This document shows, in pieces, positions 4,673 to 64,000 of a DNA stretch of 64,000 bases; the stretch's first letter is position 1, and the number at the start of each line of letters is the position of its first letter. Source of the DNA: Acidobacteriota bacterium. Lineage in GTDB: Bacteria > Acidobacteriota > Thermoanaerobaculia > Multivoradales > JAHZIX01. The position numbers were made by a program, and so were the translations under genes. Location: contig JBCCXL010000017.1 in the NCBI GenBank assembly GCA_039191605.1, positions 19,457 to 83,456 on the forward strand. Direction: 5' to 3'. A model generated the notes under the pieces. It was not told the origin of the DNA, ran no database searches, and saw only the letters and a list, made by a program, of their open reading frames with translations.

Positions 4673-7600
4673 ATGTCCCGAGTCTTCCTGCGCACCCACA
4701 GCAGCTCTTTGGTGTGGGAGGTCGAGGGGGAGCATCCCCGCTCTCGCGATCTCACGCAAGAGGATACGCAGAAGCTGCGCCTGTGGATCGCCCGCTATGG
4801 GCGGCTCACGGCGAGACGCCAGGGGCTAGCGATCTCTGGCGCGGCGGCGGTCCAGCAGCTACGGGATCTCGGGCATTCCCTCTACCGCTGGCTCGACGGC
4901 TCCCAGCGCTGGCTGGAGCGGGTGCTGGCGGAGTCGATGGACCTGGATCTGGAGATCGTGGCTTCGGAAGTTCCCGAAGAGCAGGAGCTGCTGCTGCTGG
5001 ATCTTCCCTGGGAGATCCTCGCCCGGGACGGCGCGTTCCTGGCAGAGAATCCGCGGCGGCCCTTCAGCCCGGTGCGCCGGGTCGGTAGGGGAGGAGCGCC
5101 GCGGGCCCCTTCGGAGCATCGGCTGTCGATGGTCTTCATGGCCGCGGCGCCCGAAGGGCACGCGCAGCTGGACTTCGAAATCGAGGAGGCGGCGATTCTC
5201 GAAGCGGCCAGCGGCTTGGGGGCCGACCTGGCGGTGGAGGAGACCGGCAATCTGAGGCAGCTGGAGCTGCTGCTGCTGCGCCGCGGATTGCATCGGCAGT
5301 GCATCGACGTGGTGCATCTCTCCTGTCACGGTCTCGGGGGAGAGGACCCTCACCTGCTGCTGGAGGGAGAAGATGGCGCGGTTCAAAAGGCTTCTCCCCA
5401 GGAGCTTTGCACCAGCCTTCAGCCGGGACAGCTGCGGCTGATCTTCCTCTCTGCCTGCGAGACGGCGATGTCGAGCGCGCGGCCCACCTTGAGCCATGGC
5501 GCTTTTGGGTCGATGATCGCGCCGCTAATCGCCGACGGTGCCCCGGCGGTGCTGGGGTGGGGAGCCTCGGTGAGGGATCAGCAGGCCCTTCGATTCGCTT
5601 CTTGTCTCTATCAGCGGCTCTCCCGTCAGAGCACGCTGGAAGACGCGGTGGAGGACGCCAGGGCGGAGCTGATGGAGCGCTTCGGGGCCGGCAGCGATTG
5701 GCACCTGGCGCGGCTTTTTCTCGGAGCCGAGGGAGGGGGACGCCTCACCGTTGGCACTACCTCCCGGTGGTTGGGGAGGGGGGGCAGCGTAGCCGAGGCG
5801 GAACGATGGTTCGTCGGCCGCCGCCGGGAGATTCAAGAGTCGCTGCGCTACCTGGACCCCGATCGTGCCGACGGCGCTGGCGTTCTGCTCTTTGGCGCGC
5901 CGGGGATCGGCAAGTCCCGCCTCGCCCAGCGCCTCGCCCAGCGACTGGTGGGCAGTGAGCGAATGCGCCATCTATCCCTGAAGGAGGTGCAGGGGGAGGA
6001 GGATCTGCTGGCGAGACTGGCGCGCTTCGGGGGGCTCAATGTCGAAGAGGCGCTGGCGAAGCTGAACCGGCGGGAGCTCCGGCCTTCTTTGGAGCAGCGG
6101 CTGCGCAGCCTGCTGGATACTTTCTTTCATCGCGGAGATCCAGAGGCTAAACCCCTCTTGCTGGAGCTGGATGCCTTGGAGAGCTATTTGGAGCCTCAGG
6201 GTTTCGCGCCGCGGCGGGTGTTGGAGCAGCACGTAGATTGGCTCCACGATCTCATCGCCGCCTTCAGCGCCCACCGCTTGGGCAGTCGTCTGCTCTTGGT
6301 CAGTCGGCTTCAGCCGCAGCTGGAGGTTGGCAGGCGCTGTGTCTCGCAACATCTTCGCTATCTCTCGGTGCCGGCGATGAAGCCCTACGAGAGAGACAAA
6401 CTGACGCGGGCAGCGCTCGCCGCCAGCGGCGAGGATCACTCTCACTTGGCGACGGTGAAGGATTGGCGGCAGCGTTTGAATGCCGCCGCCGGTGGGCATC
6501 CCGGTCTACAGGAACTCTTGCTGCGGGCGCTCCAGGGTGCGCCTGGGGCCGAAGCTCTGGAGACCTTGGAGAGCTACCTGCAGCATCGCGAAGCTCCGCA
6601 ACAAGGTGCTGGAAGCTGGTGGCCCTATCTCGAGCAGATGGGCCTCCAGGAGCTCTACTCTCGGCTCCCTCCTGCGTCTCGTCGCCTGCTGCAGCTCCTC
6701 TCTCTTTCTCCCCTTCCGGTTCCGGCAGGGGAGCTGGTGGCGGCGGTGCGGCATGTGGGGATCTCGAACCCCGAGGAAGCGTCTCGGCCGCTGCTGGGCA
6801 GCGGCTTATTAGAGCGACTCTGGGCTCCCGGCTGGGATGGAGGCAAGGGGGCCGATGCTCTGGAGTGGTCGCCGACCCCTTGGGTGCGTCCGCTGCTGCC
6901 GAAGGCGGATGCCGATCAGGAGCGCCGATTCGCCGAGCAGCTGGGGCATCGTCTCGACCATCGGTGGTCCAATGAGCGCCCCGCATCTCGGGAGCAGAAG
7001 CAGGAGGTGGTGCGCCTCGCCGTTCTCGGGGCGGATCTCGAGCTGCTGAAGCGGCGGGGAGAAGATGAGCTGCTGCAGCTCTATTGGCAGGGGAGTTTCC
7101 GCCGAGCCCGAGATCGAGCGGAGGCGATGATCGCCGCCTTTGAACAGGCGCGACGATCGCCGCCGCCGGGGTTTCGATTGCGGCTCTCGGAAGCCCTCCA
7201 GCGTCTCGGGGAGCCGGTGGAGGCATTGCGTGCCTTCGAGCCTCTGGAGGACTCGCTATCGCGGTACCTGGTAGCAGAAGATCTAGTAGCAGAAGACCTG
7301 ACAGCAGAAGGCCCGTCGGCAGAAGACCGTTCTGCAGAAGCCCTGCCGGAAGCAGCCCGATCGGAAGCAGCTCAACTGGAACAAGCCCAACTGGAACAAG
7401 CTCAACTGGAACAAGCCCAATTGGAACAAGCCCAATTGGAACAAGACAGCGCCGGCGCGGCGCAACAGGAGGGGCTGAGGCCCGCAGATATTCCCAGCCT
7501 GCTGGTACACCTGGGCCGATTGCGCCTGCGGGCCGGTGAGCCCCAGCCTGCCCAGGAGGCCTTCGAGCGTGCGCTGAACGCCTGGGGAGCGCCGCAGGTC

Positions 7601-14375: not shown

Positions 14376-14438
14376 GCTTTGGCTTTCAGGGCTTGGCTTT
14401 CAGGGCTTGGCTTTCAGGGCTTGGCTTTCAGGGCTTGC
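14376..14438. repeat. 15-bp tandem direct repeat x4 (ggctttcagggcttg), intergenic
   Basis: Four perfect or near-perfect copies, read directly from the sequence. Confidence 0.9.
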
Positions 14439-26220: not shown

Positions 26221-26290
26221 CTGGCCATGCTGAGACTGGCCATGCTGAAACTGGCCATTCTGAAACTGGCCATTCTGAAACTGGCAACCT
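26221..26290. repeat. 15-bp tandem direct repeat, about 4.5 copies (ctggccatgctgaaa), intergenic
   Basis: Read directly. It also generates a spurious antisense ORF beginning MPVSEWPVSEWPVSAWPVSAWP. Confidence 0.9.
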
Positions 26291-27200: not shown

Positions 27201-27603
27201 GGGAAGTCTCCTTGAGGGATTTTCTATGAGAAGGACCAGGGCCTAAGGAAAGATGTAGGGGTGCGACACTTTGCGGTCTGTCGTCGATTCAAATCAGTTG
27301 GCTGGTAGCCGAGAGCAGCCTTAGGAGGCTAAGCTCAACGCGAGTTCTGCCGTGGTGACTCGACTCACCTTGGCTCAGCTATTTATCATTATCTGTGGAC
27401 GAAGCTCGAGGTTCCTTAGCAACTATCTACGGCGGGGAGGGCCTGAAGTTCGTCGCAGCTCTCACTGCTTACGAGCTTCGGCCGCTGGCTGCGGCTGTCG
27501 CAACCCATGCGGCGCCAACGTCCTCAATCGCGGCTCGGGCTCATTCTCGGTGCTTCGAAGCCCTTTGGGGTATCAGGAGTTTCCCGGACCCCGTTCCCGG
27601 GCC

Positions 27604-27642
27604 CTGAGCTCCCGGAGCCTGAGCTCCCGGAGCCTCACCTCC
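27604..27642. repeat. 15-bp tandem repeat x2 plus a partial copy (ctgagctcccggagc)
   Basis: Read directly. It lies upstream of the gene at 27680. Confidence 0.7.
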
Positions 27643-29898: not shown

Positions 29899-30240
29899 GG
29901 CAGCTGCGATGGGGATACAGGGGGAAGCCTGCGGAGGTGGAAGAAGCTTCCTGGGAGTCTCCACCGTGAAGCGGTGGATGGATTCCTCCGGGTGACTCCC
30001 GAGGGCTAGACCAGTGTACCGCCTGAGCTTCTCGCGGAGCCGGCTCGGGAGCCTTACGGAGGGTCGCGAGAGGAGCCTGAAACCTTCGGATCTTCCTCCT
30101 CGTTGTCCTCTATATCCCCCTGCTGGTATTCGCTGGCGTCGGGGCGGAGGATGAGCGCGCCGTCGCCGACCTGAGGATCGGGAGAGTAGCGGCGAGGTAC
30201 AATAGAAAGGTCGGCTCGGCCGACGACACTTCCCGCTGAA

Positions 30241-30349
30241 GATCACAGCGATCTGAAGATCGCGGCGTTTGAAGATTGCGGCATTCGAAGATCATCGCGT
30301 CTGAAGAGCACCGCGTCTAAAGAGCATCACGTCTGAAGATCACCGCATA
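30241..30349. repeat. 16-bp tandem direct repeat, about 6.8 copies (tgaagatcgcggcgtt and variants)
   Basis: Read directly. It lies 75 bp upstream of the SPFH gene start. Confidence 0.9.
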
Positions 30350-48759: not shown

Positions 48760-50028
48760 TCAGACGGTGACCGGCTTGAGAACCTGGGTCTCCATGAGGT
48801 CGGTTTCGGCCTCCTCGGTGCTGCGGGCGAGGACGGAGATGATCTTCTCCAGCGCCCAGTCCAGCTCCTGACGGGTGATGGTGAGGGGCGGAGCGAGACG
48901 GATGACGTGCTCGTGGGTTTCCTTGCACAGGATGCCGTCCTGCTGCAGAGACTCGCAGAAGCGACGGGCGCCGCCGGCCTCGGCCTTGAGCTCGATGCCG
49001 ATCCACAGGCCCTTGCCGCGAATTTCGTGGACGTAGGGGCTGTCGATGGCCTTCAGGCGCTCGATGGCGTACTCGCCGAGGATGGCGGAGTTCTCGATCA
49101 TGCCTTCGTCTACCAGCGCCTGCATGGCGGCGCGGGCCACCGAGGCGGCGACGGGGTTGCCGCCGTAGGTGGAGCCGTGATCGCCGGGGTGGAAGACTCC
49201 CATCACCTCGTCGTCGGCGAGCATCGCCGAGACCGGGTAGAGGCCGCCGGAGAGGGCCTTGCCGATCACCACGATGTCCGGGCGAATGTTGGAGTGCTCG
49301 TAGCAGAAGAGCTTGCCGGTACGGCCCAGGCCGCTCTGGATCTCGTCGCAGATCAGCAGGGAGTTGTAGTCGTGGGTGAGCTGGCGCACTCGGGACAGGA
49401 AGTCGGTCTCCGGCACGATGATGCCGCCCTCGCCCTGGATCGGCTCCACCATCACCGCGGCGACGTTGGGGTGCATGGCGGCGGCCACCGCGTCAGCATC
49501 GCCGTAGGGCAGAATGCGAAAGCCCGGGGTGAAGGGGCCGAAGCCGCTCTTGTACTGCTCCTCCGAAGAGAAGCCCACAATGGTGGTGGTGCGGCCGTGG
49601 AAGTTGTTGTCGAAGACCAGGATCTCCGCCTGATCCTTCGGCACGCCCTTCACCGTGTAGGCCCACTTTCGGGCCGCCTTGATGGCGGTCTCCACCGCCT
49701 CGGCGCCGGTGTTCATGGGCAGCACCTTGTCGAAGCCGGTGAGCTGCGAGAGCTCCTTATAGAAGATGCCCAGCTGATCGTTGCGGAAGGCGCGGGAAGT
49801 CAGAGCCATGCGGCAGCTCTGCTCGATCATCACCTTCAGCAGGCGAGGGTGACAATGGCCCTGGTTCACCGCGGAGTAGGCGGCGAGACAGTCCATATAG
49901 CGTCGCCCTTCCACGTCCCAAACCCAAACCCCGTCGCCGCGAGTCAGGACGACGTCCAGCGGGTGATAGTTGTGGGCGCCGTAGCGATCTTCCAGAGCGA
50001 TGTAGTCGGCGGTGCTGTGGGCCTTCAT
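48760..50028 (-). CDS. rocD: ornithine--oxo-acid aminotransferase (class III PLP aminotransferase)
   Basis: HNYHPLDVVLTRGDGVWVWDVEGRRYMDCLAAYSAVNQGHCHP closely matches the OAT N-terminus. The PLP Lys context DIVVIGKALSGG is present. Start trimmed to MKAHST with a GGAGG RBS. Confidence 0.88.
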   Translation of the reverse strand: MKAHSTADYIALEDRYGAHNYHPLDVVLTRGDGVWVWDVEGRRYMDCLAAYSAVNQGHCHPRLLKVMIEQSCRMALTSRAFRNDQLGIFYKELSQLTGFDKVLPMNTGAEAVETAIKAARKWAYTVKGVPKDQAEILVFDNNFHGRTTTIVGFSSEEQYKSGFGPFTPGFRILPYGDADAVAAAMHPNVAAVMVEPIQGEGGIIVPETDFLSRVRQLTHDYNSLLICDEIQSGLGRTGKLFCYEHSNIRPDIVVIGKALSGGLYPVSAMLADDEVMGVFHPGDHGSTYGGNPVAASVARAAMQALVDEGMIENSAILGEYAIERLKAIDSPYVHEIRGKGLWIGIELKAEAGGARRFCESLQQDGILCKETHEHVIRLAPPLTITRQELDWALEKIISVLARSTEEAETDLMETQVLKPVTV

Positions 50029-50294
50029 GGGGGCTACCTCCGGTGGGATTTGTCGAGAATTCTCTCGAGAGGGTTCCTTCAACGGGCTCCGGCGGGGAGA
50101 AGATGAGGGCAGGGGAGGGCCGATGGACGGCCGAGGGAGTGTGCCGGAGGCGGGGTGTACGGTTAGCGCTGTTGATGACGCCGACCCAGGATCCTATACG
50201 TGCTGACCCCTCGGAAGATAGAGGTACCGGCGAAGGAAAGAGAAAGCCGGCAGGAATCCTCTGTTCGTATCCTCCGTAGTATGATCTGGAGGCT

Positions 50295-51377
50295 GTGATG
50301 AAGGACCCGAATACTCCCCCCGACCCCCTCGCCCCGCAGGACGCCCGTGACCCGGAAGCGGTCACCTCTGGAGCTCCCACCGCTGCTGGAGCCGACCCGG
50401 TCGTCGACCAGGCTGCCGAGGATGCCGCGGCCAGCGTGGCGCCAACCAGCAACGTGGCGACGGACAGCAGCGTGGCGGCGGGCGCCGCGGATGCGCAAAC
50501 CGTCATGACTCTGGAGGGCTCCCTGCAGCCGTCCGAGACAGGCTTCTCAGAGACAGACGCTGGGAACGCCGCGGTGGAAACCTCAGATCTAGCGGCGGAA
50601 GCTGAGTCTTTCGCAGCTTCGGGCGCCGCCTCGACGCCCGGGGTGCCGGTACCCATTCCGCCGACGCTGCGGGCGGTGAACTCCGCGACGGCGATCTGGC
50701 GGGACTGGATCGCCCCTTTGGTGATCATCCTCGCCCTGGTGCTCTCTTTCCGCTCCGCGCTGGCGGACTGGAACGACGTGCCCACCGGCTCGATGCTGCC
50801 GACGATCATCGAGGGCGACCGGATCTACGTCAACAAATTGGCCTATAGCCTGCGCTTCCCCCTCTCCACCGTGCATTTGGTGAGCTGGGATGGTCCTGAG
50901 CGGGGAGACATCATCGTCTTTCTCTCGCCGGAAGACCGCAAGCGGCTGGTCAAGCGGGTGGTGGGCGTGCCCGGGGACGTCATCGAGCTGCAGGACAACC
51001 GGCTGATCCTCAACGGCGAGCCGGTGACCTACGATCACCTGGACGAAACGATTTACCACACCGAGACCGTCGAGCGCCTGGAGCGCCTCAACGTGCTGCT
51101 GTGGCAGGAAGATCTCGGGGACCGTAACCACGCGGTGGCCTTGCAGCCCTTCCCCCGGGCCTCGGTGCTGAGCGATACCTTCGGCCCGGTAGAAGTGCCC
51201 GAAAACGAATATTTCGTCATGGGCGATAACCGAGACGTCAGCCGTGATTCCCGATTCTTCGGCACCGTCGATCGCTCCCTGATTCTCGGCGAGGCGACGG
51301 CGGTGATGTTCTCGAACCCGCCCGCCGATCCCTTCTACTCGATGCGCGGCGATCGTTGGTTCGTCTCCCTCGACTGA
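50295..51377 (+). CDS. lepB: signal peptidase I with a long acidic N-terminal extension
   Basis: A TM segment, then GSMLPTI (catalytic Ser), KRVVGVPGD (Lys) and GDNRDVSRDSRFFG (box E). Confidence 0.85.
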   Translation: MMKDPNTPPDPLAPQDARDPEAVTSGAPTAAGADPVVDQAAEDAAASVAPTSNVATDSSVAAGAADAQTVMTLEGSLQPSETGFSETDAGNAAVETSDLAAEAESFAASGAASTPGVPVPIPPTLRAVNSATAIWRDWIAPLVIILALVLSFRSALADWNDVPTGSMLPTIIEGDRIYVNKLAYSLRFPLSTVHLVSWDGPERGDIIVFLSPEDRKRLVKRVVGVPGDVIELQDNRLILNGEPVTYDHLDETIYHTETVERLERLNVLLWQEDLGDRNHAVALQPFPRASVLSDTFGPVEVPENEYFVMGDNRDVSRDSRFFGTVDRSLILGEATAVMFSNPPADPFYSMRGDRWFVSLD

Positions 51378-51421: not shown

Positions 51422-54400
51422 GTGTCTTTAATGTGCCCTGTGTCTCCTAATCTAGGGTCAGCTGACGTCGATGGGCTCCTGGGGCTCGACGCCCTGGAGT
51501 CGGCGGTTGATGAGCACCCTAAATTAGGGCCGACGGTGGTGCATCGAGCGCGCCTCGAGGCCCAGCCCCGGCGTTCGGGGACTTTGGAGAAGGAGCTGCC
51601 GGAAGCGCTGCTGCAGATCCTGCGGGAGCGCGGGGTGGAGAATCTGTGGAGCCACCAGGCGGAGGCCCTGGATCTCGCCCGCCGGGGAGAGGACGTGCTG
51701 GTGACGACCCCCACCGCGTCCGGCAAGTCCTTGGTCTTTCAGCTGCCGGTGCTGGAAGAGGCGCTGAAGGGAGGGGAGGGCAGGGCTCTTTGGCTCTTCC
51801 CCCTCAAGGCCTTGGCCCAGGATCAGCGCGCCAAGCTGATGGAGATGGCCTCTGCCGTGGGGGTAGAGGAGAACTTCTGCGCCATCTATGACGGCGATAC
51901 GCCGCGCTCGCTGCGGCCGAAGATCCGCGCCGATCCGCCGCGGGTGCTGATCACCAACCCCGACATGCTGCACTTGGGTTTGCTGGCCCACTGGAATAGC
52001 TGGCGGCCCTTTTTCGCCTCGCTGCGCTGGCTGGTGCTGGACGAGCTGCACACCTATCGCGGCGTTTTCGGCAGCCACTTTCATCACGTGCTGGCGAGGC
52101 TCCAGCGCTTGTGTGCTCGGCTCGGCGCTCGCCCCGCGGTGATCGCCTCCTCCGCTACCGCCGACAACGCTGAGAGCTTCGCCGCGACCCTGATTCGGCG
52201 CCAGCTCACCACCATCGAGACCAGCGGCGCCCCGCGGGAGGCCCGCCGCTTCGTGCTGCTGCGCCCCTCCGCCAGCCCCTACACCGCGGCCCTGGACCTG
52301 CTCTGCCTGTGCCTGGAGCACGGCATGAAGACCATCGTCTTCACCAAGGCCCGGCGCATCACCGAGCTGCTCTATTCCTGGCTGCGGCGGCGGGATCCGG
52401 CGCTGGCGGCGCGGGTGCGCTCCTATCGGGCGGGCTTCCTGCCGCAGGAGCGCCGGCGAATCGAGGGCCGCCTGGCTTCGGGGGAGCTGGATGGGGTGAT
52501 CTCCACCTCGGCGCTGGAGATGGGGATCGACATCGGAGGCCTGGATGCCTGCATTCTGGTGGGTTACCCCGGCAGCGTGATGGCCACCTGGCAGCGCAGC
52601 GGCCGGGTAGGGCGCAGCGGGCGGGAATCCCTCACCGTGATGGTGGCGCTGCCGGATGCTCTGGACCAATACTTCCTCGATCACCCCCAGGAGCTGCTGG
52701 AGCGGCCCTGCGAGCGGCTGATCATCAACCCGAGGAACCGCCCGGTGGCGGAGGCCCACCTGCGCTGTGCGGCGGCGGAGCTGACGCTTTCCCGGGAGCT
52801 GGACGAGGATTACCTGGCCGACCAGGAAGAGGCGGTGGAGGCTCTGGTGGCGGCAGGAGATCTGCTGGAGGACGCCTCCGGCAGCGAGCTCTTCTGCGTT
52901 CGCCGTCGGCCCCACCGAGATGTCGCTCTGCGCGGCAGCGGCGGGACCCTCGAGGTGCGCCTGGATGGTGGCGAGGGAGCGGTGGTCGGCACTCTGGACG
53001 CCGGCCGAGCGCTGCGGGAGGCGCACCCCGGGGCGATCTATCTTCACGGCGGGCGCTCCTTTCGAATCGAGGCGCTGGATCTAGACTCCCAGCGCGCCCT
53101 GGCGGTGGCGGAAGAGGCGGATTACTTCACCACGCCGATGGCCCATAAGGAGACGGAGATCCTGGAGGTCCTGGAGCGGCGGGACGATGGTCCCCTCACC
53201 GCCTGGTTGGCGAGGCTGCAGGTGCGGGAACAGGTCACCGGCTACGAGCGCAAGCGGCTGCTGGATCAGGAGGTGCTCACCCGGCGGGACCTGGTGATGC
53301 CGAAGACCGAGATGGAGACGGTGGGGCTGCTCTTCGCCGCGGGGCCCGCCATCGAGGATGCCCTGAGGCGGGCGGAGCAGGGCTTCATGGGGGCGCTCCA
53401 CGCTTCGGAGCACGCCGCGATTTCTCTGATGCCGGCCTTCGCTCTGTGCGATCGCGGGGATATCGGCGGCATCTCGATCCCCTTCCACCCCCAGGTGGGA
53501 GCCGGGGCGGTGTTCATCTACGACGGGCATCACGGCGGCATGGGGCTGGCGCAGGAGGCCTTCCAACGCTTGCCGGAGCTGCTGTTGCGGGTGCGGGAGC
53601 TGCTGGACGCCTGCCCCTGTGAAATCGGCTGTCCCAGCTGTATCCAGAGCCCGAAGTGCGGCAACGGGAATCGACCCCTAGACAAGGCCGGAGCGGCCCA
53701 CCTTCTGCGCCTGCTGCTGGCGGAAGAGGCCCTTCCGGAGCCTTCTGATCCGCGCCTGGAGATCACCTTCGCGGCGCCGGAGGACGAGTCCAAGAAAGGC
53801 GAGGAAGGGGCCTCGGCCCCCGCCTGGGGAGGGATTCTTCGAGAGCCGGGGGCGAAGGTGGATTCGGCTCCGGTGGAAGAGCCCGCAGCGGTTGCGCAGC
53901 GCACTCTGCCGGTGGGAGAGCTCTCTCATCGCGAGGGTTCACGGTGCGGTAGTGAAGGGGGCCCGGCGGCGGTCGGCGCGTCGACGAGCCCCGAGGTGCC
54001 TAAGGCGAAGGCTGGATCATCGAAGACCGGCTCATCGAAGAAGGGGACATCCAAAGCTGGCTCATCCAAGGGTGGCTCATCCAAGAGCGGGCCATCGAAG
54101 GCCGTCTCGTCGGGGTCTGCGTCTCCAAGCCCTGCGTCTCCAAGCCCTGGGCCGTCTGGATCCGCGTCGTCGGGTTCTGGCGACTTACCTCTCACCGTGC
54201 TTTTCGACCTCGAGACGAAGCGCTCGGCGCAGGAGGTGGGGGGGTGGAATCGAGCCCACCGCATGGGCATCGCCATCGGCGTCGTCTGCTTCCTGGAGGA
54301 AGGCCGATTGGAGGTCTATCCCGAGGATCGGGTGGGGGAGCTTCACGCCGATCTCCGCCGGGCTTCTCTGGTGATCGGCTTCAACAGCCGGCGCTTCGAT

Positions 54401-54727
54401 TACGCGGTGCTCTCCGGCTATACCGGGGAGGACTACAGCCGCACCTTACCGACGCTCGATCTGCTGGAAGACCTGCAACGGCGCATCGGTCGCCGGGTGA
54501 GCCTCGATAGCCTCACCGCCGCCACTCTCGGCGCCAAGAAGAGCGCCGACGGGCTACAGAGCCTGGAATGGGTGAAGCAGGGGCGGCTGGACCTGGTGGA
54601 ATCCTATTGCCGCCGCGACGTCGAGCTGCTGCGAGACCTCTATCTCTTCGGGCGCCGGGAGGGCTACGTCCAGTTCACCCGCCGCAAGACCGGCGGCGAG
54701 GTGGAGAGAGTGGAGGTCGATTGGTGA
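51422..54727 (+). CDS. MrfA/YprA-like DEAD/DEAH-box helicase with DUF1998 (4-Cys) domain, fused through a Ser/Gly/Lys repeat linker to a DnaQ-like 3'-5' exonuclease (MrfB/YprB-like)
   Basis: Helicase motifs: TPTASGKS (motif I) and VLDELH (motif II). DUF1998 Cys cluster: CPCEIGCPSCIQSPKCGN. C-terminal exonuclease motifs: FDLET (Exo I), FNSRRFDYAVL (Exo II) and YCRRDVELLRDLY (Exo III). Confidence 0.8.
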   Translation: MSLMCPVSPNLGSADVDGLLGLDALESAVDEHPKLGPTVVHRARLEAQPRRSGTLEKELPEALLQILRERGVENLWSHQAEALDLARRGEDVLVTTPTASGKSLVFQLPVLEEALKGGEGRALWLFPLKALAQDQRAKLMEMASAVGVEENFCAIYDGDTPRSLRPKIRADPPRVLITNPDMLHLGLLAHWNSWRPFFASLRWLVLDELHTYRGVFGSHFHHVLARLQRLCARLGARPAVIASSATADNAESFAATLIRRQLTTIETSGAPREARRFVLLRPSASPYTAALDLLCLCLEHGMKTIVFTKARRITELLYSWLRRRDPALAARVRSYRAGFLPQERRRIEGRLASGELDGVISTSALEMGIDIGGLDACILVGYPGSVMATWQRSGRVGRSGRESLTVMVALPDALDQYFLDHPQELLERPCERLIINPRNRPVAEAHLRCAAAELTLSRELDEDYLADQEEAVEALVAAGDLLEDASGSELFCVRRRPHRDVALRGSGGTLEVRLDGGEGAVVGTLDAGRALREAHPGAIYLHGGRSFRIEALDLDSQRALAVAEEADYFTTPMAHKETEILEVLERRDDGPLTAWLARLQVREQVTGYERKRLLDQEVLTRRDLVMPKTEMETVGLLFAAGPAIEDALRRAEQGFMGALHASEHAAISLMPAFALCDRGDIGGISIPFHPQVGAGAVFIYDGHHGGMGLAQEAFQRLPELLLRVRELLDACPCEIGCPSCIQSPKCGNGNRPLDKAGAAHLLRLLLAEEALPEPSDPRLEITFAAPEDESKKGEEGASAPAWGGILREPGAKVDSAPVEEPAAVAQRTLPVGELSHREGSRCGSEGGPAAVGASTSPEVPKAKAGSSKTGSSKKGTSKAGSSKGGSSKSGPSKAVSSGSASPSPASPSPGPSGSASSGSGDLPLTVLFDLETKRSAQEVGGWNRAHRMGIAIGVVCFLEEGRLEVYPEDRVGELHADLRRASLVIGFNSRRFDYAVLSGYTGEDYSRTLPTLDLLEDLQRRIGRRVSLDSLTAATLGAKKSADGLQSLEWVKQGRLDLVESYCRRDVELLRDLYLFGRREGYVQFTRRKTGGEVERVEVDW
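54016..54120 (+). repeat. 15-bp tandem repeats x7 inside the helicase gene, encoding the (G/S)SSK-type linker
   Basis: The DNA reads gctcatcgaagaccg / gctcatcgaagaagg / ggacatccaaagctg ... This encodes GSSKTGSSKKGTSKAGSSKGGSSKSGPSKAVSS. Confidence 0.8.
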
Positions 54728-54883
54728 GATCCGAGGGAAAATCTCGGATCTCGGCTGGGCACCCCTAACCTGGAATGCTGCCGCTGACGGCATGCCGCCG
54801 CCTGGATTTTTCTGAATTGCTTCCGCCGACCGACTTCCGCTGAAAAGGGGGAGCGGAGACCGGCCCGACCGACTCAGCTGCAC

Positions 54884-55243
54884 TCAGAGGTTGTCGACCA
54901 CCTCGAGGAGCTGCTGCAGGTCGAAGGGCTTCTTGATGTACGCCGCGGCGCCCCCGTCCAGCGCTCGCTGGGTGTCTTCTTCCTTGCCCTCGGTGGACAC
55001 CACCACCACGGGAATCCCCGCCAGGGCGTCGTCGGACTTGACTCGGCCGAGGAACTCCAGGCCGTTCATGTTGGGCATGTTGATGTCGAGCAGGATGGCG
55101 TCCACATCCGGGTGGTCGCTGAGCATGCGGAGCCCCTCCACGCCATCATTGGCGTGGACCAGATCGTATTGACGCAGCATCACGCCGAACATCTTGTGGA
55201 TCAGCTTCGAGTCGTCGACGATGAGGAACTTTTTCTGCGCCAC
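54884..55243 (-). CDS. cheY: CheY-like single-domain response regulator
   Basis: FLIVDDS, LLDINMP, VVVVSTEG and KPF are the REC signatures (Asp, Asp, Thr, Lys). Confidence 0.85.
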   Translation of the reverse strand: MAQKKFLIVDDSKLIHKMFGVMLRQYDLVHANDGVEGLRMLSDHPDVDAILLDINMPNMNGLEFLGRVKSDDALAGIPVVVVSTEGKEEDTQRALDGGAAAYIKKPFDLQQLLEVVDNL

Positions 55244-55881: not shown

Positions 55882-57591
55882 ATGGACAGCGCATTCAAGG
55901 AGTTATTAGAAGACTTCGTCCTGGAGGCGCGAGAGCGCGCCGACACGGTAGAGGAGATGCTGCTGTCGCTGGCGGAGGCCAGTGCCGAGGAGCGAGAGCA
56001 GAAGGTCGCCCGGGCGAAGCGCCAGCTCCACACTCTGAAGGGCAATTCGGGGATGATGGGCTTTGGCGAGCTGCAGACGCTGGCCCACGAGATCGAGGAC
56101 GCCGTCGAGGCGCTGGATCTGGAGTCGCCGGAGATCGACGAGCTCCTGCAGCAGCTGGATCGCTTTCGGCTGCTGTTGCGCCAACAGGTCGCGAGTCAGC
56201 TGGAGGGAGGGGAAGACTCCGACGAGGACAGGACCCGGGCCGGTGACGAGCCCTCCGAAGCGGACGGGGTCTCGGCTGGGGAATCCGCTGAACAGGAGAC
56301 CGGTTCCGACGACGAAGGAGCCGAGGCCCGGGCGGATAGCCCCGGCGAGGATCCGCAGGAGCAAGAGCAGGAGCAGGAGGAGGTCAGCCGAGAGCTCGCC
56401 TCCGGCGGCGTTCGGGTGCTCTTCAGCGAGCTGGACGGCCTGGTAGAGCTGCTGGCGGAGGTTCTGCTCTATCGCAACCGCCTGGGGGATTCCCTCGGAC
56501 AGGTTCGCCAGCTGCTGCCGGGGGAGAACCGGGAACAGAGCGACGCCTGGGACGAGAGCGAGGCGGTGCGTCAATCTCTGGAGCAGGTGCTGGATTTTCT
56601 TCAGGAGCGCATTCTGCGGCTGCGTATGGTGCCGCTGGCGACCCTCTTCCGCCATCTGTCTCGCATCGTTCATGACGAGTCCCGTCGGGAGCAGAAGAAG
56701 GTGCGCTTCGTCACCGACGGTGGCGATACCCCGCTGGACAAAGCTCTTCTGGAGCTCGCCAGCGAGGCCCTCGGACACCTGGTGCGCAACGCCGTGAACC
56801 ACGGGGCGGAGCGCCCCGCGGAGCGCAAGGCGGCGGGGAAGGACGAGACCGCCGTGCTGCGGCTCTCGGCGGCGGTGAAGGGCCAGGAGGTCCATATCGA
56901 GGTCGAGGATGACGGCGGCGGGATCCACTACGAATCCCTGGAGGCGCTAGCGCGAGCGCGCGGCTTGCCCCACCGCACCCGGGCGGATCTCGACGCCCTG
57001 ATTTTCGAGGCGGGGGTTTCCACCCGTTCATCGACCTCCCTCTCGGCGGGGCGCGGCGTCGGCCTGGCGGCGGTGGCTTCGGCGGTGCGGCGCCACGGCG
57101 GGCGCATCGACCTTTCCTCGATGCCGGGGGAGGGGACTCGCTTCCTGCTTCGCCTGCCTCTGTCGGTCTCCATCACCCGGGCTTTGCTGCTGCGGGTGGA
57201 TGGCGAGGTCTACGCTCTGCCGCTGGGGGCGGTGATCGAGAGCCTGCGCCTGGAGATCGACGCCCTGGAGCGGGTCGGCGGGCGAGAGATCTTCCGCTGG
57301 CGGGGGCAGCTGGTGCCGGTTCTCGATCTCGGACAGTGGTTCCGCACCGCTATCGATCCACGAAGTCAGGGCTTCGTGGTGATCGTGGAGGCCCTGGGGC
57401 GCCACCGTGCGGTGGTGGTAGACGAGCTGGTGGGGATCCGGGACATCGTGGTGAAAGGCCTCGATCCCCTGCTCGGCTCTCCGCCGGGACTCTCCGGCTC
57501 CACCATCCTCGGCGATGGGCGAGCGGTGCTGATTCTCGATCCTTCGGCGCTCACCGAGCAGATCTCGACAGATTCGGCGGCGGTGGGGTGA
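55882..57591 (+). CDS. cheA: CheA-type histidine kinase (Hpt-dimerisation-HATPase-CheW)
   Basis: Hpt: QLHTLKGNSGMMGF. HATPase: LVRNAVNHGAE, DDGGGI and GRGVGL. The C-terminal CheW-like domain is present. Confidence 0.9.
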   Translation: MDSAFKELLEDFVLEARERADTVEEMLLSLAEASAEEREQKVARAKRQLHTLKGNSGMMGFGELQTLAHEIEDAVEALDLESPEIDELLQQLDRFRLLLRQQVASQLEGGEDSDEDRTRAGDEPSEADGVSAGESAEQETGSDDEGAEARADSPGEDPQEQEQEQEEVSRELASGGVRVLFSELDGLVELLAEVLLYRNRLGDSLGQVRQLLPGENREQSDAWDESEAVRQSLEQVLDFLQERILRLRMVPLATLFRHLSRIVHDESRREQKKVRFVTDGGDTPLDKALLELASEALGHLVRNAVNHGAERPAERKAAGKDETAVLRLSAAVKGQEVHIEVEDDGGGIHYESLEALARARGLPHRTRADLDALIFEAGVSTRSSTSLSAGRGVGLAAVASAVRRHGGRIDLSSMPGEGTRFLLRLPLSVSITRALLLRVDGEVYALPLGAVIESLRLEIDALERVGGREIFRWRGQLVPVLDLGQWFRTAIDPRSQGFVVIVEALGRHRAVVVDELVGIRDIVVKGLDPLLGSPPGLSGSTILGDGRAVLILDPSALTEQISTDSAAVG

Positions 57592-57595
57592 GCCG

Positions 57596-58132
57596 ATGAG
57601 CGCAACTCCCGAAGTAGGCGCTAGCGCCTCTGCCCTGTCGCCGACCCTGGCATCGGGCTCAGCCCAGGAGCCCGCCGAAGAGAGCCGGGCACAGTCTCCC
57701 TGGGTACTCTGCGAAAGCGGAGGGATGGCCTTCGCCGTCGATCTGGATCGGGTGGTGGAGGTCTTTGGCGCTTCCTCTCTGCTGCCGGCTCCCGACGACG
57801 CCCCGGAAGCGGTGATCGCCATCGCCCAGGGAGGCGGCCTGCGGGTTCCGGTGGTGTCTTTAGCTCGCCAGCTGGGGGTGGAGGAGGCGGTGGAGGCGAA
57901 TCGGCGGCGAGTGCTGGTGGTGTCCTCCCAGGGTCGCGCCATCGGTCTGGAGGTGGATCGGGTGCGCAGCATTCTGGCCCTGGAGCGCGCCGGCCGGCAG
58001 CCGGTACCGAGGGTTCTAGCCGGCATCAGCGGCGGGCTTCCGGCCATTGCTGGCTTCGCTTTTCACCAGCAGCGCTGGCTGATGTTGTTGGAGGTCGACG
58101 GTCTGCTCTCGCCGCGATGGGGCCGGTCTTGA
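57596..58132 (+). CDS. cheW: CheW-like coupling protein
   Basis: WVLCESGGMAFAVDLDRVVEV and the downstream beta-sandwich pattern. The start lies 4 nt after the cheA stop. Confidence 0.7.
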   Translation: MSATPEVGASASALSPTLASGSAQEPAEESRAQSPWVLCESGGMAFAVDLDRVVEVFGASSLLPAPDDAPEAVIAIAQGGGLRVPVVSLARQLGVEEAVEANRRRVLVVSSQGRAIGLEVDRVRSILALERAGRQPVPRVLAGISGGLPAIAGFAFHQQRWLMLLEVDGLLSPRWGRS

Positions 58133-58565
58133 TAGGCTCGCCAGCCTGGCTCGCGGGAAGGGATCGAAGGAGCGGCTCTCGGTCCGATGAATCCCTTGCC
58201 CGAGACCATCGGTTGGCTTCCTTCCTGCACTGCTTTCCCCTACCTTCTCTCGTGGCGGCCATCGGCGCCGCGATCCGGGTCTCTCATCCCCTGCGTCCCG
58301 CAGATGAATCCTGCATCCACGGCGCCCCTCGGGGCCTGTCGACGGTGGTCCCGACGGAGATTTCCGCTCTTCGCGGGGTCCTGCGGCAGCCCAAGGCCTG
58401 CGCTCTCTAGGGAGCCGGGCCATTCCGCAGCTGCGGTCCTCGGGTCCTCTCGTTTCGACCTTCCCGGGCTCAAAGATCCTGCAGGTAGCGATGACAGAAG
58501 ATGGGCAGGACAGAAGACGGATCGGCAGAAGAGCTTCAAGCATCGGCATCTCAGACTTCGAAATT

Positions 58566-58700
58566 CAAAGACATCGACGGCCAAGACAGTGATGGCCAAG
58601 ACAGTGATGGCTAAGACAGTGATGGCTAAGACATCGACGGCCAAGAAAACGACAGTCAAGAAAACGATAGATAAGACAGCGACAGTCAAGACATCGACAT
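58566..58700. repeat. 15-bp tandem direct repeat x9 (ccaagacagtgatgg and variants), between cheW and the HEAT-repeat gene
   Basis: Read directly. The spurious ORFs over it encode KTVMAKTVMAKTV repeats. Confidence 0.9.
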
Positions 58701-58872
58701 CCCTGGGAGAGCGCCGCGGTGCACCTTCGCCGCGACGCAGCTTCAGCAGGTGGATTGTTCACCCGACTTTCCTCCTAGTGGTTCCAGCGGCGGTGGTTCC
58801 GGGGACCATGCTCCGGCGCCCACCCCGAGCCCACCGATCGATAGTGACGACGTAGCGAGAGGATCATCGACC

Positions 58873-60789
58873 ATGGCCCAATCCAATCCCCAGAGCGAAC
58901 CCAGCTGGGAGGAGTGCATCGAGCTACTCGAGCGCCTGCCCTCTATGTCCGTGCCGGAGCGTGTCGAGGCCATCGCGCTTCTCGTGCGCAACTCCAGTCC
59001 CGGAATCCGGGGGCGGGCTCTGCGGATGGGGGCTGCGGCCCTCTCCGACGACGTCCTCACCAGCTACTTGCGCAACGACGATGACGGCGTGCTGCGCAAC
59101 GCCGGTCTCGAGATGCTCAAGATGCGGGGTAATCGCGGCTTTTCCCTCGCTATCCACCTGCTCAAGGACCCGGACTACGACGTCGCCCTGCAGGCGGTGC
59201 TGATCCTCGACCACCTCAAGGATCCCCGCGCCCTCGAGGCGCTGCGGGGCCAGCTCCGCCACGAGGACATCAACGTCGTGCAGGCGGTGATCGTCGCTAT
59301 CGGTCACCTCGGGGACGCTCGCACCATTCCCGACCTGCTGCCCTACCTGGAAGGGGAATCGTGGCTGCAGGTAGCGGCGGTCGAGGCGCTGGGAGATATT
59401 CGCTCGCCGGTGGCGGTGCCTCATCTCGCCCAGCTGCTGACGGATCTGATGGTGGGGCCGATGGCCGCCGAGGCGCTGGCGCGCATCGGTGGCGAAGAGG
59501 CCTACCGCTTCCTCGCCGAGCACTGGCTGCGCTTCCGCCAGGAGCTGGACACGGAGACCACCCTGGGCCTGCTGGCCCACGTGCTGGAGGGGCTGCCGAA
59601 GTTCCCGGAGGAGGCCGAGGGGCTGCGCCCCGCGCTGGCGCAGCAGCTTCAGGGCGAGAGCGCCTCGATCCGCCTGCCGGCGGCGCGCTGTCTGCTGGCC
59701 CTGGGGCCCGGCAGCGAAGATCGCGCGGCGCTGGAGCAGCTGGTCGACCAGCAGCTGGATCCGCTGCTGCTGCCGGCCTGTCTGTCCGGGCGCCGCGATC
59801 TCATCGCCCGCCTGCTGCTCTCGCCGGATCAGCGCCGCGCCTGGGGCTTCCTGCTCTGCGCCCGCTTCCCGGAGCACATCCCCACCGAGGAGCTGGTGAC
59901 GGCTCTCTCCCGGCCGATGGAGCCGGAGTGGCTGGAGCTCTTGGTGAGGACCCTGTCGAAGGTGGAGAGCCGGCGGGTGGCGTCCGCCCTGCTGGACCTC
60001 TACCGCTCCCTCGGCAGCGGCGAGCGCTCGGCGCTGGCGCCGGTGCTCACCGCCCACGGCAGCCACCTGCGAACCCTGCTCAGCGAGCGAGACGACCTCC
60101 AGACCAAGACTCGGCTGGTGCTCTCGGTGCTGCTGGAGGAGCGGGTGGAGACCGCGGCGGCGGAGATTCAGCAGCTGCCGGAGGAAGACCGTCTCGAAGT
60201 GTTGGCGCAGATCACCGATCGCTCCGCCCTCACCCGGCTGCTGCCCTGGCGCCAGTGGATCGAACTCAGCCCCGACCGCTATGGCCCCATCGCCGCCGAG
60301 GTGGCGGTTCACGGCGGCCCCCGGGACCTGCGGCCGCAGCTGCGCTCCCTGCTGGAGCAATTCCCCGGCCCAGAGCTGGTGCGGGCGATGGGCGAGCTGG
60401 GGGATTCGGAGAGCGTTCCGACGCTAGTGGCCCTGCTGCAAGGCGGGGACGGCGCGCTGGATCTCATCGTGCTGGAATCCCTGGGGCGCATCGGCGGACC
60501 CCAGGTGCGGCGCACCCTGCGGGATGTGGCGGAGGGCAGCGGGGACGCCAAGCGGGCCCGCATCGCGTACCGCGCCCTCTCGCTCTGCGCCACCGATGAG
60601 GACGACGCCTTCTTCCGCGATGCGGCGGATCACGGAGATTGGTATGTGCGCTTGGCCTGTGCCGAGGTCCTCGGCCGGTTCCAGCGGCCGGAGAATCTCT
60701 CGGTGCTGGCTCAGCTAGCCTCGGACCCGGTCTCCATCGTCGCCCAGCGGGCGATGGCTCTGCTCGAATCGGAGGGTGTCGGCAAGTGA
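58873..60789 (+). CDS. HEAT/PBS-lyase-like repeat protein of the chemosensory cluster
   Basis: Recurrent ...R..A...LG......V..L..LL.D.. HEAT-like units (VPHLAQLLTD, VPTLVALLQGGD, DWYVRLACAEVLGR). Start trimmed to MAQSNPQ. Confidence 0.7.
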   Translation: MAQSNPQSEPSWEECIELLERLPSMSVPERVEAIALLVRNSSPGIRGRALRMGAAALSDDVLTSYLRNDDDGVLRNAGLEMLKMRGNRGFSLAIHLLKDPDYDVALQAVLILDHLKDPRALEALRGQLRHEDINVVQAVIVAIGHLGDARTIPDLLPYLEGESWLQVAAVEALGDIRSPVAVPHLAQLLTDLMVGPMAAEALARIGGEEAYRFLAEHWLRFRQELDTETTLGLLAHVLEGLPKFPEEAEGLRPALAQQLQGESASIRLPAARCLLALGPGSEDRAALEQLVDQQLDPLLLPACLSGRRDLIARLLLSPDQRRAWGFLLCARFPEHIPTEELVTALSRPMEPEWLELLVRTLSKVESRRVASALLDLYRSLGSGERSALAPVLTAHGSHLRTLLSERDDLQTKTRLVLSVLLEERVETAAAEIQQLPEEDRLEVLAQITDRSALTRLLPWRQWIELSPDRYGPIAAEVAVHGGPRDLRPQLRSLLEQFPGPELVRAMGELGDSESVPTLVALLQGGDGALDLIVLESLGRIGGPQVRRTLRDVAEGSGDAKRARIAYRALSLCATDEDDAFFRDAADHGDWYVRLACAEVLGRFQRPENLSVLAQLASDPVSIVAQRAMALLESEGVGK

Positions 60790-61631
60790 TCCGAGAGATC
60801 GCGCCGCTGACGCGCGAGGAGCAGGCCCTCTTCAACGAGGTGCTCTCCAAGGAGTTCGGGCTCTATTTTCCGGAGTCCAAACGGCAGATCCTCGAGTCTC
60901 GCCTCGAGCCGAGGGTGCGTGAGCTGCGGCTGCGTCGGTTCTTCGACTACTACCTCAAGGTGCAGGTGGATCTCGCCCAGGAGGCGCCGTATCTGGTGCG
61001 CCTGGTGACCAATAACGAGACCTACTTCTTCCGCGAGAAGGCTCAGTTCGAGGCGCTCTTCGGCCCTGCCCTGCAGGATTGGGTGGCCGGGGCGGTGACG
61101 CCGGGTGTGGTGCGCATTCTCTCTGCCGGCTGTTCCTCCGGGGAGGAGCCCTACACCCTGAACATCTACGCCAAGCAGGCGCGCTTTCGCCTCGGCACCA
61201 CCGAGATTCAGGTCGAGGCCTTCGATATCGACACCGAGCGCCTCCACATGGCGCGCAGCGGGATCTATCGGGAGCGTTCCTTGCGGGCGATGTCCGACGA
61301 GCTGGTGGAGCGCTACTTCCGCACCCACGACAACGGGTTGTGGGAGCTCAAGCCGGCCTTTCGCCGCGGGGTGAATTTCCGCGAGGGCAACATCATCACC
61401 AGCGATGCCTACCGCACCTCGGTGGGCTACGACGCGATCTTCTGCCGCAACGTGCTGATCTACTTCTCCGAGGTGGCCCTTCACCAGGCGATCGAGAATT
61501 TCGCCAGCGCCCTGCGCCCCGGCGGTCTGCTCTTTCTCGGGCATTCGGAATCCATCATCGGGCTGTCCCGTCACCTGGAGACCGTGCGCTTGGATAACTG
61601 CATCGCCTATCGCAAGGTAGCGGAGCGGTGA
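60786..61631 (+). CDS. cheR: CheR-type chemotaxis protein methyltransferase
   Basis: The N-terminal helical domain plus ETYFFRE, RILSAGCSSGEEPYTL and IFCRNVLIYF SAM-MTase motifs. The GTG start overlaps the HEAT gene stop (GTGA). Confidence 0.85.
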   Translation: MIREIAPLTREEQALFNEVLSKEFGLYFPESKRQILESRLEPRVRELRLRRFFDYYLKVQVDLAQEAPYLVRLVTNNETYFFREKAQFEALFGPALQDWVAGAVTPGVVRILSAGCSSGEEPYTLNIYAKQARFRLGTTEIQVEAFDIDTERLHMARSGIYRERSLRAMSDELVERYFRTHDNGLWELKPAFRRGVNFREGNIITSDAYRTSVGYDAIFCRNVLIYFSEVALHQAIENFASALRPGGLLFLGHSESIIGLSRHLETVRLDNCIAYRKVAER

Positions 61632-62845
61632 ATAGCTCCTCCAGCAGCGGGCCGCTGCGCGTTGCGGTGGTGGATGACTCGAGCTTCGTGCGCAAGGCCA
61701 TCAGCCGCATGCTGGAGAACGACGAGCGCATCGATATCGTCGGACAGGCGGCGAGCGGTGAGGAGCTGCTCACCCATCTGCTGGAATGGGCGCCCGACGC
61801 CATCACGCTGGATCTCTCGATGCCCGGCATGGGCGGCCTGCAGACCCTCGATCGGGTGATGGCGGTGCGCCCGACGCCGGTGATCATCCTCTCTACCCAC
61901 TCGGCGAAAGATGCTCCGCTGACCATCGAGGCGCTGCACCGCGGCGCCATGGACTTCATCGACAAGCAGCAATACTCGCTGGTGGATTTCGAGTCTCTGC
62001 GGGCGGTGATCCTCGAGAAGCTGCTTTCGGTGCGCTCGGCGAGTCTGCCGTCGCCGCGCCGGGGCGGTACCGGTGAGCAGCCGGCGGCGAAGACCAGCCC
62101 GCGGTCTTCGAAGCCCACGGCGCGGGGAAAATTGGGGAAAAGCCCCCAGTCCCAATCCCAGTCTCGATCTCGAACCGGGCCCCAATCCCGGGCACAGCCC
62201 CGGACTCGAGGCGAGGCCGGCGCCGTGCGCCGAGCCCCGGTGCAGCCCTCCCCGCGCTTCGACGTGCTGCTGGTGGGGGCCTCCACCGGGGGGCCGCCGA
62301 CGATCCAGAAGCTGCTAGAAGATCTCGGCGCTACGGTGTCGGTCCCGGTGCTGGTGGTGCAGCACATGCCCAAGGGGTTCACCCGAGCCTTTGCCGACCG
62401 CCTCAACTCTCACCTCGAGGTCAGCGTGCGGGAAGCCTCCGACGGCGAGCGATTGGAGCTCTCCACGGTGTATCTCGCCCCCGCGGGCATGCATCTGCGG
62501 GTCGCCCGCCGCGAGGATCAGCTCTTCGCCCAGCTCACCGAGAGCCCCCGCCACCTCACCCACCGCCCCTCGGTGGACGTGCTCTTCGAATCCGCCGCGC
62601 GGGTGGTGGGACGCCGCTGTCTCGCCGCCCTGCTCACCGGCATGGGCAGCGACGGTGCCCAGGGGATGGCCCGCATCGCCGATGCTGGAGGCTACACCGT
62701 GGTGCAGGATATGGAATCCTGCGTCGTCTACGGCATGCCGCGGGCGGCGAAGAATCTGCGAGCGGTGCGCGAAGAGCTCTCCCTGGACGTTCTCGGAGGA
62801 CGCCTCCAGCAGCTCCTCGGCGCTCCGCAGCCGGGCTCCGGGTAG
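61628..62845 (+). CDS. cheB: CheB-type methylesterase with N-terminal receiver domain
   Basis: REC: VAVVDDS, TLDLSMP and KQQ. CheB catalytic region: LLVGASTGGP, VLVVQHMPKGFT and GMGSDG. The GTG start overlaps the cheR stop. Confidence 0.9.
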   Translation: MNSSSSSGPLRVAVVDDSSFVRKAISRMLENDERIDIVGQAASGEELLTHLLEWAPDAITLDLSMPGMGGLQTLDRVMAVRPTPVIILSTHSAKDAPLTIEALHRGAMDFIDKQQYSLVDFESLRAVILEKLLSVRSASLPSPRRGGTGEQPAAKTSPRSSKPTARGKLGKSPQSQSQSRSRTGPQSRAQPRTRGEAGAVRRAPVQPSPRFDVLLVGASTGGPPTIQKLLEDLGATVSVPVLVVQHMPKGFTRAFADRLNSHLEVSVREASDGERLELSTVYLAPAGMHLRVARREDQLFAQLTESPRHLTHRPSVDVLFESAARVVGRRCLAALLTGMGSDGAQGMARIADAGGYTVVQDMESCVVYGMPRAAKNLRAVREELSLDVLGGRLQQLLGAPQPGSG

Positions 62846-63680: not shown

Positions 63681-63709
63681 TCGTCCCGCCCTCCGCAGCG
63701 CTATCTTTT

Positions 63710-63790
63710 GAGAGGCTATGTCTTGAGAGGCTTATGTCCTAGGCAGGCTATGTCCTGGGCAGGCTATGTCCTGGCGAGGCTGTGTCTTGG
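63710..63790. repeat. 15/16-bp tandem direct repeat, about 5 copies (ggcaggctatgtcct), intergenic after cheW
   Basis: Read directly. Confidence 0.85.
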
Positions 63791-63919: not shown

Positions 63920-64000
63920 ATGGAATCACCTGATCAGCCCTCTTCTCCATCCGCTAGTTCGTCGCCTTCCTCGAGCTCGTCGGCTTCCTCTGGTTCGTCG
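63920..64000 (+). CDS. 5' end of a Ser/Pro-rich protein, truncated by the window edge
   Basis: An ATG follows GGAGAAAG. The sequence is MESPDQPSSPSASSSPSSSSSASSGSS. Confidence 0.3.
   Translation, partial: MESPDQPSSPSASSSPSSSSSASSGSS

Follow-up and report, generated by a model that had tools for sequence, protein, structure and literature searches.

A YprA/MrfA-family helicase joined by a variable disordered linker to a predicted DEDDy 3'-5' exonuclease in an Acidobacteriota bacterium

In Bacillus subtilis, the helicase MrfA (YprA) interacts with the exonuclease MrfB (YprB), and the two are epistatic with respect to survival of mitomycin C (10.1101/426304). MrfA is a 3'-5' translocase on single-stranded DNA and MrfB a Mg-dependent 3'-5' DNA exonuclease; together they serve a pathway independent of UvrABC (10.1101/426304, PMC7797055, PMC11194089). 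At the B. subtilis locus (L082) mrfA and mrfB, the latter encoding 413 amino acids (aa), are separate and adjacent, as the initial annotation of the DNA described here had stated. Here we describe a gene of an Acidobacteriota bacterium that carries a helicase and an exonuclease of these types in one polypeptide. It lies on the forward strand of contig JBCCXL010000017.1, within a stretch of 64,000 nucleotides that we call the window, and all positions below are those of the window. In our judgement it probably encodes a single-chain helicase-nuclease of the YprA/MrfA repair branch, made of a helicase, a linker of ~130 aa and a DEDDy exonuclease of 180 aa.

Fusion of YprA helicases of the repair branch with homologues of MrfB/YprB can occur, according to a preprint (bioRxiv 10.1101/2025.09.15.676423, 2025). 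The preprint does not describe the fused clade, and a literature search returned no other paper joining DUF1998, exonuclease and fusion in this sense. Outside the family, human and mouse WRN likewise pairs a 3'-5' superfamily 2 helicase (here by homology) with a DEDDy 3'-5' exonuclease, with a low-complexity region between them. The WRN spacer is repeat-containing, and Hrq1, the eukaryotic relative of MrfA, is RecQ4-like. In WRN, however, the exonuclease is N-terminal, the reverse of the domain order here, and its helicase belongs to the RecQ family instead of YprA/Hrq1; nothing points to a shared origin of the two fusions. DinG of the Staphylococcus aureus type is a 5'-3' helicase with an N-terminal DEDDh exonuclease (PMC12345164). 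The proofreading domains of family-B polymerases and the NrnC/diDNase enzymes have the same DEDDy chemistry as the protein described here and motifs of similar form (GxNxxxFD and YCxxD), but the polymerase domain attached in the former is absent from it.

The gene is a single uninterrupted open reading frame (ORF) of 1101 codons that starts with GTG and whose translation has no internal stop. NCBI places the start six codons downstream, at the GTG at 51440, which gives 1095 aa; the identical 1095-aa NCBI protein (P0001) is named 'MAG: DEAD/DEAH box helicase [Acidobacteriota bacterium]'. The product is a single-chain protein, with the helicase at residues ~20-789, a disordered linker at 790-920 and the exonuclease at 921-1101. 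In the full-length AlphaFold2 (AF2) model, the mean predicted local distance difference test score (pLDDT) is 80.6: confidence is high for the helicase and exonuclease folds, and residues 790-920 stay below 50. Helicase motifs I and II, the Cys cluster and exonuclease motifs I-III, which the initial annotation had assigned to one reading frame, are all present there (Table 1).

From its sequence, the N-terminal part is a true DExH helicase of the YprA/MrfA family, and the initial proposal of a MrfA-like helicase with a DUF1998 domain is borne out. Pfam recognizes DEAD (PF00270, 98.9 bits), Helicase_C (PF00271, 54.6 bits), the winged helix WHD_HRQ1 (PF22982, 36.4 bits) and MZB/DUF1998 (PF09369, 73.7 bits). 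The crystal structure of B. subtilis YprA/MrfA (6ZNP) is matched at 436 bits (E 1.4e-129), residues 39-743 aligning to 21-732 without large gaps. The helicase is homologous to MrfA over its whole length and shares its DExH core, winged helix, OB/connector and 4-Cys MZB modules; its beta-rich region at ~506-662 aligns with the part of 6ZNP that forms the OB and connector elements (domain names from PMC7797055). The ATP-binding residues are intact, and C731, C733, C737, C740 and C746 of the Cys cluster are invariant in an alignment of 50 full-length homologues. The closest NCBIfam model is TIGR03817, describing the actinobacterial 'helicase/secretion neighbourhood' DEAH helicase of the SftH type, which scores 700.9 bits over residues 40-767; this is below its curated cut-off of 874.1, so equivalog membership was rejected in favour of a related subfamily.

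The C-terminal part belongs to the YprB-type RNase H-like family (PF13482) and is predicted to be a DEDDy 3'-5' exonuclease with an intact active site. When the last 184 residues are scanned alone, PF13482 (RNase_H_2) is matched at 22.4 bits against a cut-off of 22, and PF01612 and PF10108 more weakly. Among 30 diverse family members, all 30 match PF13482 at E <= 0.001 (best 4.3e-12), and it is their best Pfam family. Conservation was assessed in three alignments of relatives: 54 close ones, 30 diverse ones that include standalone proteins only 36-47% identical, and the 50 full-length homologues. D929, E931, N988, F992, D993, Y1062, C1063 and D1066 are invariant in all three; the four DEDD acidic residues expected of the DnaQ-type, MrfB-like exonuclease in the initial annotation are among them, and that assignment holds at the level of the PF13482 family, though at a distance from MrfB. 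The AF2 model of this part reaches a pLDDT of 95.9, and the Y-x3-D motif YCRRD lies inside a helix (1056-1080), the long helix alpha-C by which DEDDy enzymes are told. The protein terminates 35 residues past D1066. As a whole, the exonuclease domain is a minimal unit of ~175 aa with conserved, family-specific GGW and KSADG motifs. Two of its relatives (P0331, P0345) carry a Siphovirus Gp157 domain joined to the C-terminal end of the exonuclease domain, from which the family appears to circulate in phages as well; a protein search of a phage collection gave a single distant match.

We scanned one genome per species for the exonuclease domain, which yielded at least 443 stretches, and analysed the best 80 loci. 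A complete helicase stands in frame with the exonuclease in 67 of the 80, and in nine more the frame stays open up to the contig end; the rest are two loci without upstream sequence, one frameshifted (L022) and one true standalone (L067). By record titles, the 80 loci belong to Thermoanaerobaculia (30), other Acidobacteriota (21), Holophagales (2), 'Multivoradales' (3), Myxococcota (4), unspecified Deltaproteobacteria (5), Desulfobacterales and relatives (10) and Desulfovibrionaceae (4), with one unclassified. Cultured carriers among them are Nitratidesulfovibrio sp. HK-II (L079, a complete genome), Desulfovibrio sp. 7SRBS1 and Desulfoluna butyratoxydans, and the complete genomes of cultured strains that keep both parts in frame include L079, L075 and L060. 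At the protein level, all 120 of the best 120 full-length homologues measure 981-1144 aa and have the same helicase domains, some with precomputed PF13482 or PF01612. A profile search of 1.84 billion cluster representatives retrieved 3043 clusters (E <= 0.001), in which fused proteins of ~920-1176 aa occur together with fragments and with standalone proteins of ~180 aa. Over 65 species, the identities of helicase and exonuclease to the query are correlated (r = 0.87), which fits inheritance of both halves as one gene. Both halves are co-inherited as one ORF across three phyla: Acidobacteriota, Myxococcota and Desulfobacterota.

This conservation refutes the idea that the fusion is an artefact, in which two adjacent genes would have been merged by an error of sequencing or assembly within the low-complexity repeat, and we give that idea practically no weight. 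It could be raised since the junction lies in repetitive, GC-rich DNA, and since the exonuclease occurs as a separate protein of 174-260 aa in some database entries, including entries from close relatives. Yet many of these entries sit on contigs of ~1-3 kb, and in two of the three long-contig cases inspected (L001, 3410-6681, and L085, 1874-5085) the exonuclease stands beside helicase pieces on long-read contigs whose neighbouring genes are broken too; on the third long contig (L086), no helicase gene call was found upstream of the exonuclease. These entries from close relatives were rejected as signs of naturally split genes. With regard to split and fused relatives, a comparison that the initial annotation had raised, fused forms prevail and, among the apparent splits inspected, most are contig fragments or frameshifted long-read contigs.

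The contigs L001, L085 and L086 are long-read metagenome contigs of one ENA project, in which two to four separate gene calls cover the fused gene; these splits probably reflect indel errors that create spurious 'standalone' exonuclease and helicase entries in the databases. The one true standalone member of the exonuclease family (L067, 4893-5585, in a Myxococcales metagenome-assembled genome) has 230 aa and no helicase within 5 kb. Its neighbours are unrelated: a GAF-GGDEF protein, an alanine dehydrogenase and an ABC-F ATPase.

The two folded parts are connected by a disordered segment rich in S, G, A, P and K. Tandem Repeats Finder (TRF) reports a 15-bp repeat of 7.1 copies at 54006-54112, with 72% matches, in agreement with the seven 15-bp repeats of the initial annotation. 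In frame, the array reads KAGSS KTGSS KKGTS KAGSS KGGSS KSGPS KAVSS, followed by GSASPSPASPSPGPSGSASS. The mean identity between its units is 0.70, a value equalled by none of 1066 other in-frame 105-nt ORF windows. The seven units account for only 35 aa of the 131-aa linker. A recent expansion, also proposed initially, is credible for part of this segment: the perfect 33-bp duplication that follows the array looks recent, whereas the seven-unit array itself has diverged. The initial expectation that linker length varies is confirmed between species. Between the last residue of the Cys cluster and Exo I, the linker spans 72-225 aa among 116 protein homologues and 52-209 aa (median 117.5) in 64 species genomes; by the same measure the window's linker has 177 aa, near the top of the range. 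In 18 of the 64 species genomes the linker DNA contains its own, unrelated tandem repeats, and the linkers can be aligned only in a conserved helix and a short strand-like segment right after MZB. Given this spread of 52-225 aa, the unalignable sequences and the independent repeats, the linker is a fast-evolving disordered tether, probably lengthened repeatedly by slippage.

Short tandem arrays are a habit of this genome and not a peculiarity of the fused gene, as at least eight other short-period arrays score 60 or more in the 64-kb window, several with a 15-bp period. Arrays with periods of 14-18 bp lie at 7354-7445, 14379-14437, 26221-26285, 27595-27635, 30236-30346, 58568-58698, 63700-63789 and 63956-64000; the one at 14379-14437 is a perfect 14-bp repeat of 4.2 copies.

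The comparison with MrfAB supports the reading as a single-chain helicase-nuclease of the repair branch in its general plan. Both systems associate the two activities physically, by interaction in Bacillus and by a covalent join here, where one polypeptide replaces two adjacent genes. Both nucleases are DEDD 3'-5' exonucleases (the activity is predicted here) that match PF13482 and hence share one Pfam family, and structural comparison finds the fold of the MrfB catalytic core in the fused exonuclease.

Several points weigh against this reading. By its sequence the fused exonuclease is only a distant relative of MrfB: the latter scores 136.6 bits with PF13482, compared with 22.4 bits for the former, and the region from Exo II to Exo III is ~17 residues shorter in the fused exonuclease. 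Searches of PDB sequences with hidden Markov models of the family did not retrieve MrfB (8UN9) at E <= 10, returning instead weak matches to DEDDy enzymes (the Pol I exonuclease, NrnC/diDNase and Pol delta); a search of PDB sequences with the single exonuclease sequence likewise missed MrfB. In hhalign, the probability against MrfB is 12.6%, and only the Exo II region is aligned. Y1062, invariant in all three sets of 54, 30 and 50 sequences, stands where MrfB has H258, which makes the fused enzyme DEDDy and not DEDDh. The TPR domain of MrfB and its N-terminal extension of ~100 aa are missing: a Pfam scan of the C-terminal region found no TPR match, and upstream of Exo I there is only the disordered linker of variable length. 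In B. subtilis MrfB itself, TPR matches are weak and below threshold (291-359; cf. PMC11194089). The neighbouring genes (signal peptidase I, the CheY-like regulator and the che operon) give no functional hint. Finally, P. aeruginosa homologues of MrfAB did not complement B. subtilis (10.1101/426304), so the function may differ between lineages; for the fused members we infer substrate, polarity and lesion specificity by analogy with the Bacillus pair, and a role in the repair of mitomycin damage or crosslinks is likewise only putative.

Around MrfA homologues in two further loci (P0463, P0504), no adjacent MrfB was found. In a relative of Paenibacillus sp. L3-i20 (L083, 3001-7361), the mrfA homologue stops early, at 652 aa and without the MZB domain; on the opposite strand, a gene for a large serine recombinase overlaps it and a gene for an S24 peptidase is close by. 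The arrangement suggests that a prophage or an intervening element has inserted in the 3' end of mrfA.

It may also be that the architecture is convergent: a DEDDy exonuclease of the PolB-proofreading or phage type would have been recruited independently and not from an adjacent mrfB, and the protein would work like MrfAB or WRN without being a true MrfA-MrfB gene fusion. We regard both the independent recruitment and this functional likeness without descent as possible but doubtful. Besides the invariant Tyr in place of His258, they draw support from the structural matches, the top ones being DEDDy enzymes, with exonuclease domains of family-B polymerases best and MrfB only 49th; from the Exo II and III motifs GFNxxxFD and YCxxD, which resemble Pol delta; from PHROG 403, 'DNA polymerase exonuclease subunit', which at 45.5 bits outscores PF13482; and from the relatives that stand apart from any helicase (L067) or are fused to the phage Gp157 domain. 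On the other side, PF13482, the family of MrfB, is the best Pfam family of all the diverse members, and a forced global hhalign alignment puts the five catalytic positions in register, D929/E931 with D107/E109, D993 with D172, Y1062 with H258 and D1066 with D262. According to its authors, MrfB itself, though DEDDh, has its nearest structural counterparts among DEDDy exonucleases of the PolB type, and its crystal captured an inactive, partly disordered state (PMC11194089); its low structural rank is therefore partly expected. The authors of the preprint, too, class the fused partners as MrfB/YprB homologues.

A role in anti-phage defence, as an effector comparable to the helicases of the YprA family in DISARM, Druantia, Dpd and ARMADA and not as a repair enzyme, strikes us as very unlikely. 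The PADLOC models BrxHI, SngC, DruE, DpdF and DrmA do match the protein, with E from 1e-42 to 1e-13, and C-terminal nuclease domains are common on defence-branch YprA helicases (bioRxiv 10.1101/2025.09.15.676423). However, these matches are confined mainly to the generic helicase core (~65-410), only the DruE models also reaching the MZB region (696-771), and the helicase is collinear with MrfA from end to end and lacks the additional zinc-module insertions by which the defence branch has been described. No methyltransferase, PLD or Vsr nuclease, DrmB/C or DruH is encoded nearby, the neighbours being lepB, an aminotransferase and chemotaxis genes, and across phyla the pattern is that of one gene conserved by vertical descent. 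More speculative, and in our view improbable, is a joint reading in which the fused clade of the three phyla is a bacterial counterpart of WRN, its nuclease having come, independently of Bacillus MrfB, from a lineage of the PolB-proofreading or phage type, and its disordered tether being functional. In this reading the length of the tether and its K/S/P-rich charge pattern, tuned by in-frame 15-bp slippage, would set the reach of the nuclease or its affinity for DNA and would differ between populations.

If the protein is a helicase-nuclease of the repair branch, its action may be pictured by analogy with B. subtilis. As for MrfA, the helicase would load at a nick or gap, track 3'-5' and peel off the damaged strand; as for MrfB, the tethered exonuclease would degrade the freed 3' end. 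The outcome would be an excision route for bulky adducts that does not depend on UvrABC. The flexible linker would need only to hold the nuclease within reach, which would leave its sequence free to drift, and it may expand and contract by replication slippage of its short in-frame repeats.

No defence or repair partners are found among the neighbours of the fused gene (Table 1). In a contig from a related member of the Acidobacteriota (L085, 1-781, - strand), a class-III aminotransferase gene is again found upstream on the opposite strand, and the shared position suggests local synteny around the helicase gene. Directly 3' of the stop codon, at 54728-54750, a perfect 8-bp inverted repeat, GATCCGAG ... 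CTCGGATC, encloses a 7-nt loop; there is no T-run behind it, and it may form a transcript-end hairpin. Inside the chemotaxis operon, between cheW and the gene of the HEAT-repeat protein, a 222-aa ORF (58187-58855, + strand) encodes a low-complexity basic protein. It contains the array at 58568-58698 (15 bp, 8.7 copies), its product is rich in Lys, Thr and Ala, and it has a weak histone-H1-like (HC2) match.

Table 1 Features of the fused gene and of its surroundings in the window.
Feature	Position	Strand	Residues	Remarks
Class-III aminotransferase	48760-50082	-		further upstream, opposite strand
Signal peptidase I (lepB)	50295-51377	+		upstream neighbour, same strand as the fused gene
Whole gene	51422-54727	+		1101-codon ORF; stop TGA at 54725-54727
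RecA1 / DEAD domain	51650-52171	+	77-250	Pfam
Motif I, TTPTASGKS	51704-51730	+	95-103	GKS = 101-103; invariant in 50 full-length homologues
Motif II, DELH	52040-52051	+	207-210	invariant in 50 full-length homologues
RecA2 / Helicase_C domain	52301-52621	+	294-400	Pfam
Winged helix, Hrq1/MrfA type (WHD_HRQ1)	52724-52936	+	435-505	Pfam
Beta-rich region between winged helix and MZB	52937-53407	+	~506-662	strands 509-640 in AF2 model
MZB / DUF1998 zinc-binding domain	53408-53644	+	663-741	Pfam
Cys cluster CPCEIGCPSCIQSPKCGN	53612-53665	+	731-748	
Disordered linker	53789-54181	+	790-920	131 aa; pLDDT 25-34
Seven in-frame 15-bp units, K-x-G-S-S	54008-54112	+	863-897	
Perfect 15-bp x 2.2 duplication	54117-54149	+		33 bp, 100% matches; within SASPSPASPSPG stretch; TRF
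C-terminal DEDDy 3'-5' exonuclease domain (predicted), PF13482	54182-54724	+	921-1101	
Exo I, LFDLET	54200-54217	+	D929/E931	
Exo II, VIGFNSRRFDY	54371-54403	+	N988/D993	
Exo III, YCRRD	54599-54622	+	1062-1066	Y1062/D1066
CheY-like receiver	54884-55243	-		downstream neighbour
che operon: cheA, cheW, HEAT-repeat protein, cheR, cheB	55882-62845			downstream of the fused gene

The fused architecture is already known, abundant in databases and under-annotated, and the gene of the window is an ordinary member of it; the novelty implied by the initial annotation was overstated, the arrangement being widespread and mentioned in the 2025 preprint. The new points are modest: that the DEDDy chemistry is invariant, that both the TPR domain and the N-terminal extension are missing, over which taxa the fusion ranges, and that its linker is hypervariable and prone to repeats. 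None of these findings on the fused helicase-exonuclease overturns current understanding. For annotation, hundreds of entries named only 'DEAD/DEAH box helicase' also contain an active-looking 3'-5' exonuclease. For the study of MrfAB, a covalent linkage conserved in three phyla provides evidence of the 'Rosetta-stone' kind for joint work of this helicase family and a PF13482 exonuclease. Since the fused form lacks the TPR domain and the N-terminal extension, neither element would be universally required for coupling, and the family tolerates a change from His to Tyr at the position of the general base. In the cultured, genetically tractable relatives of Desulfovibrio and Nitratidesulfovibrio, the coordination of helicase and nuclease could be studied with a single gene.

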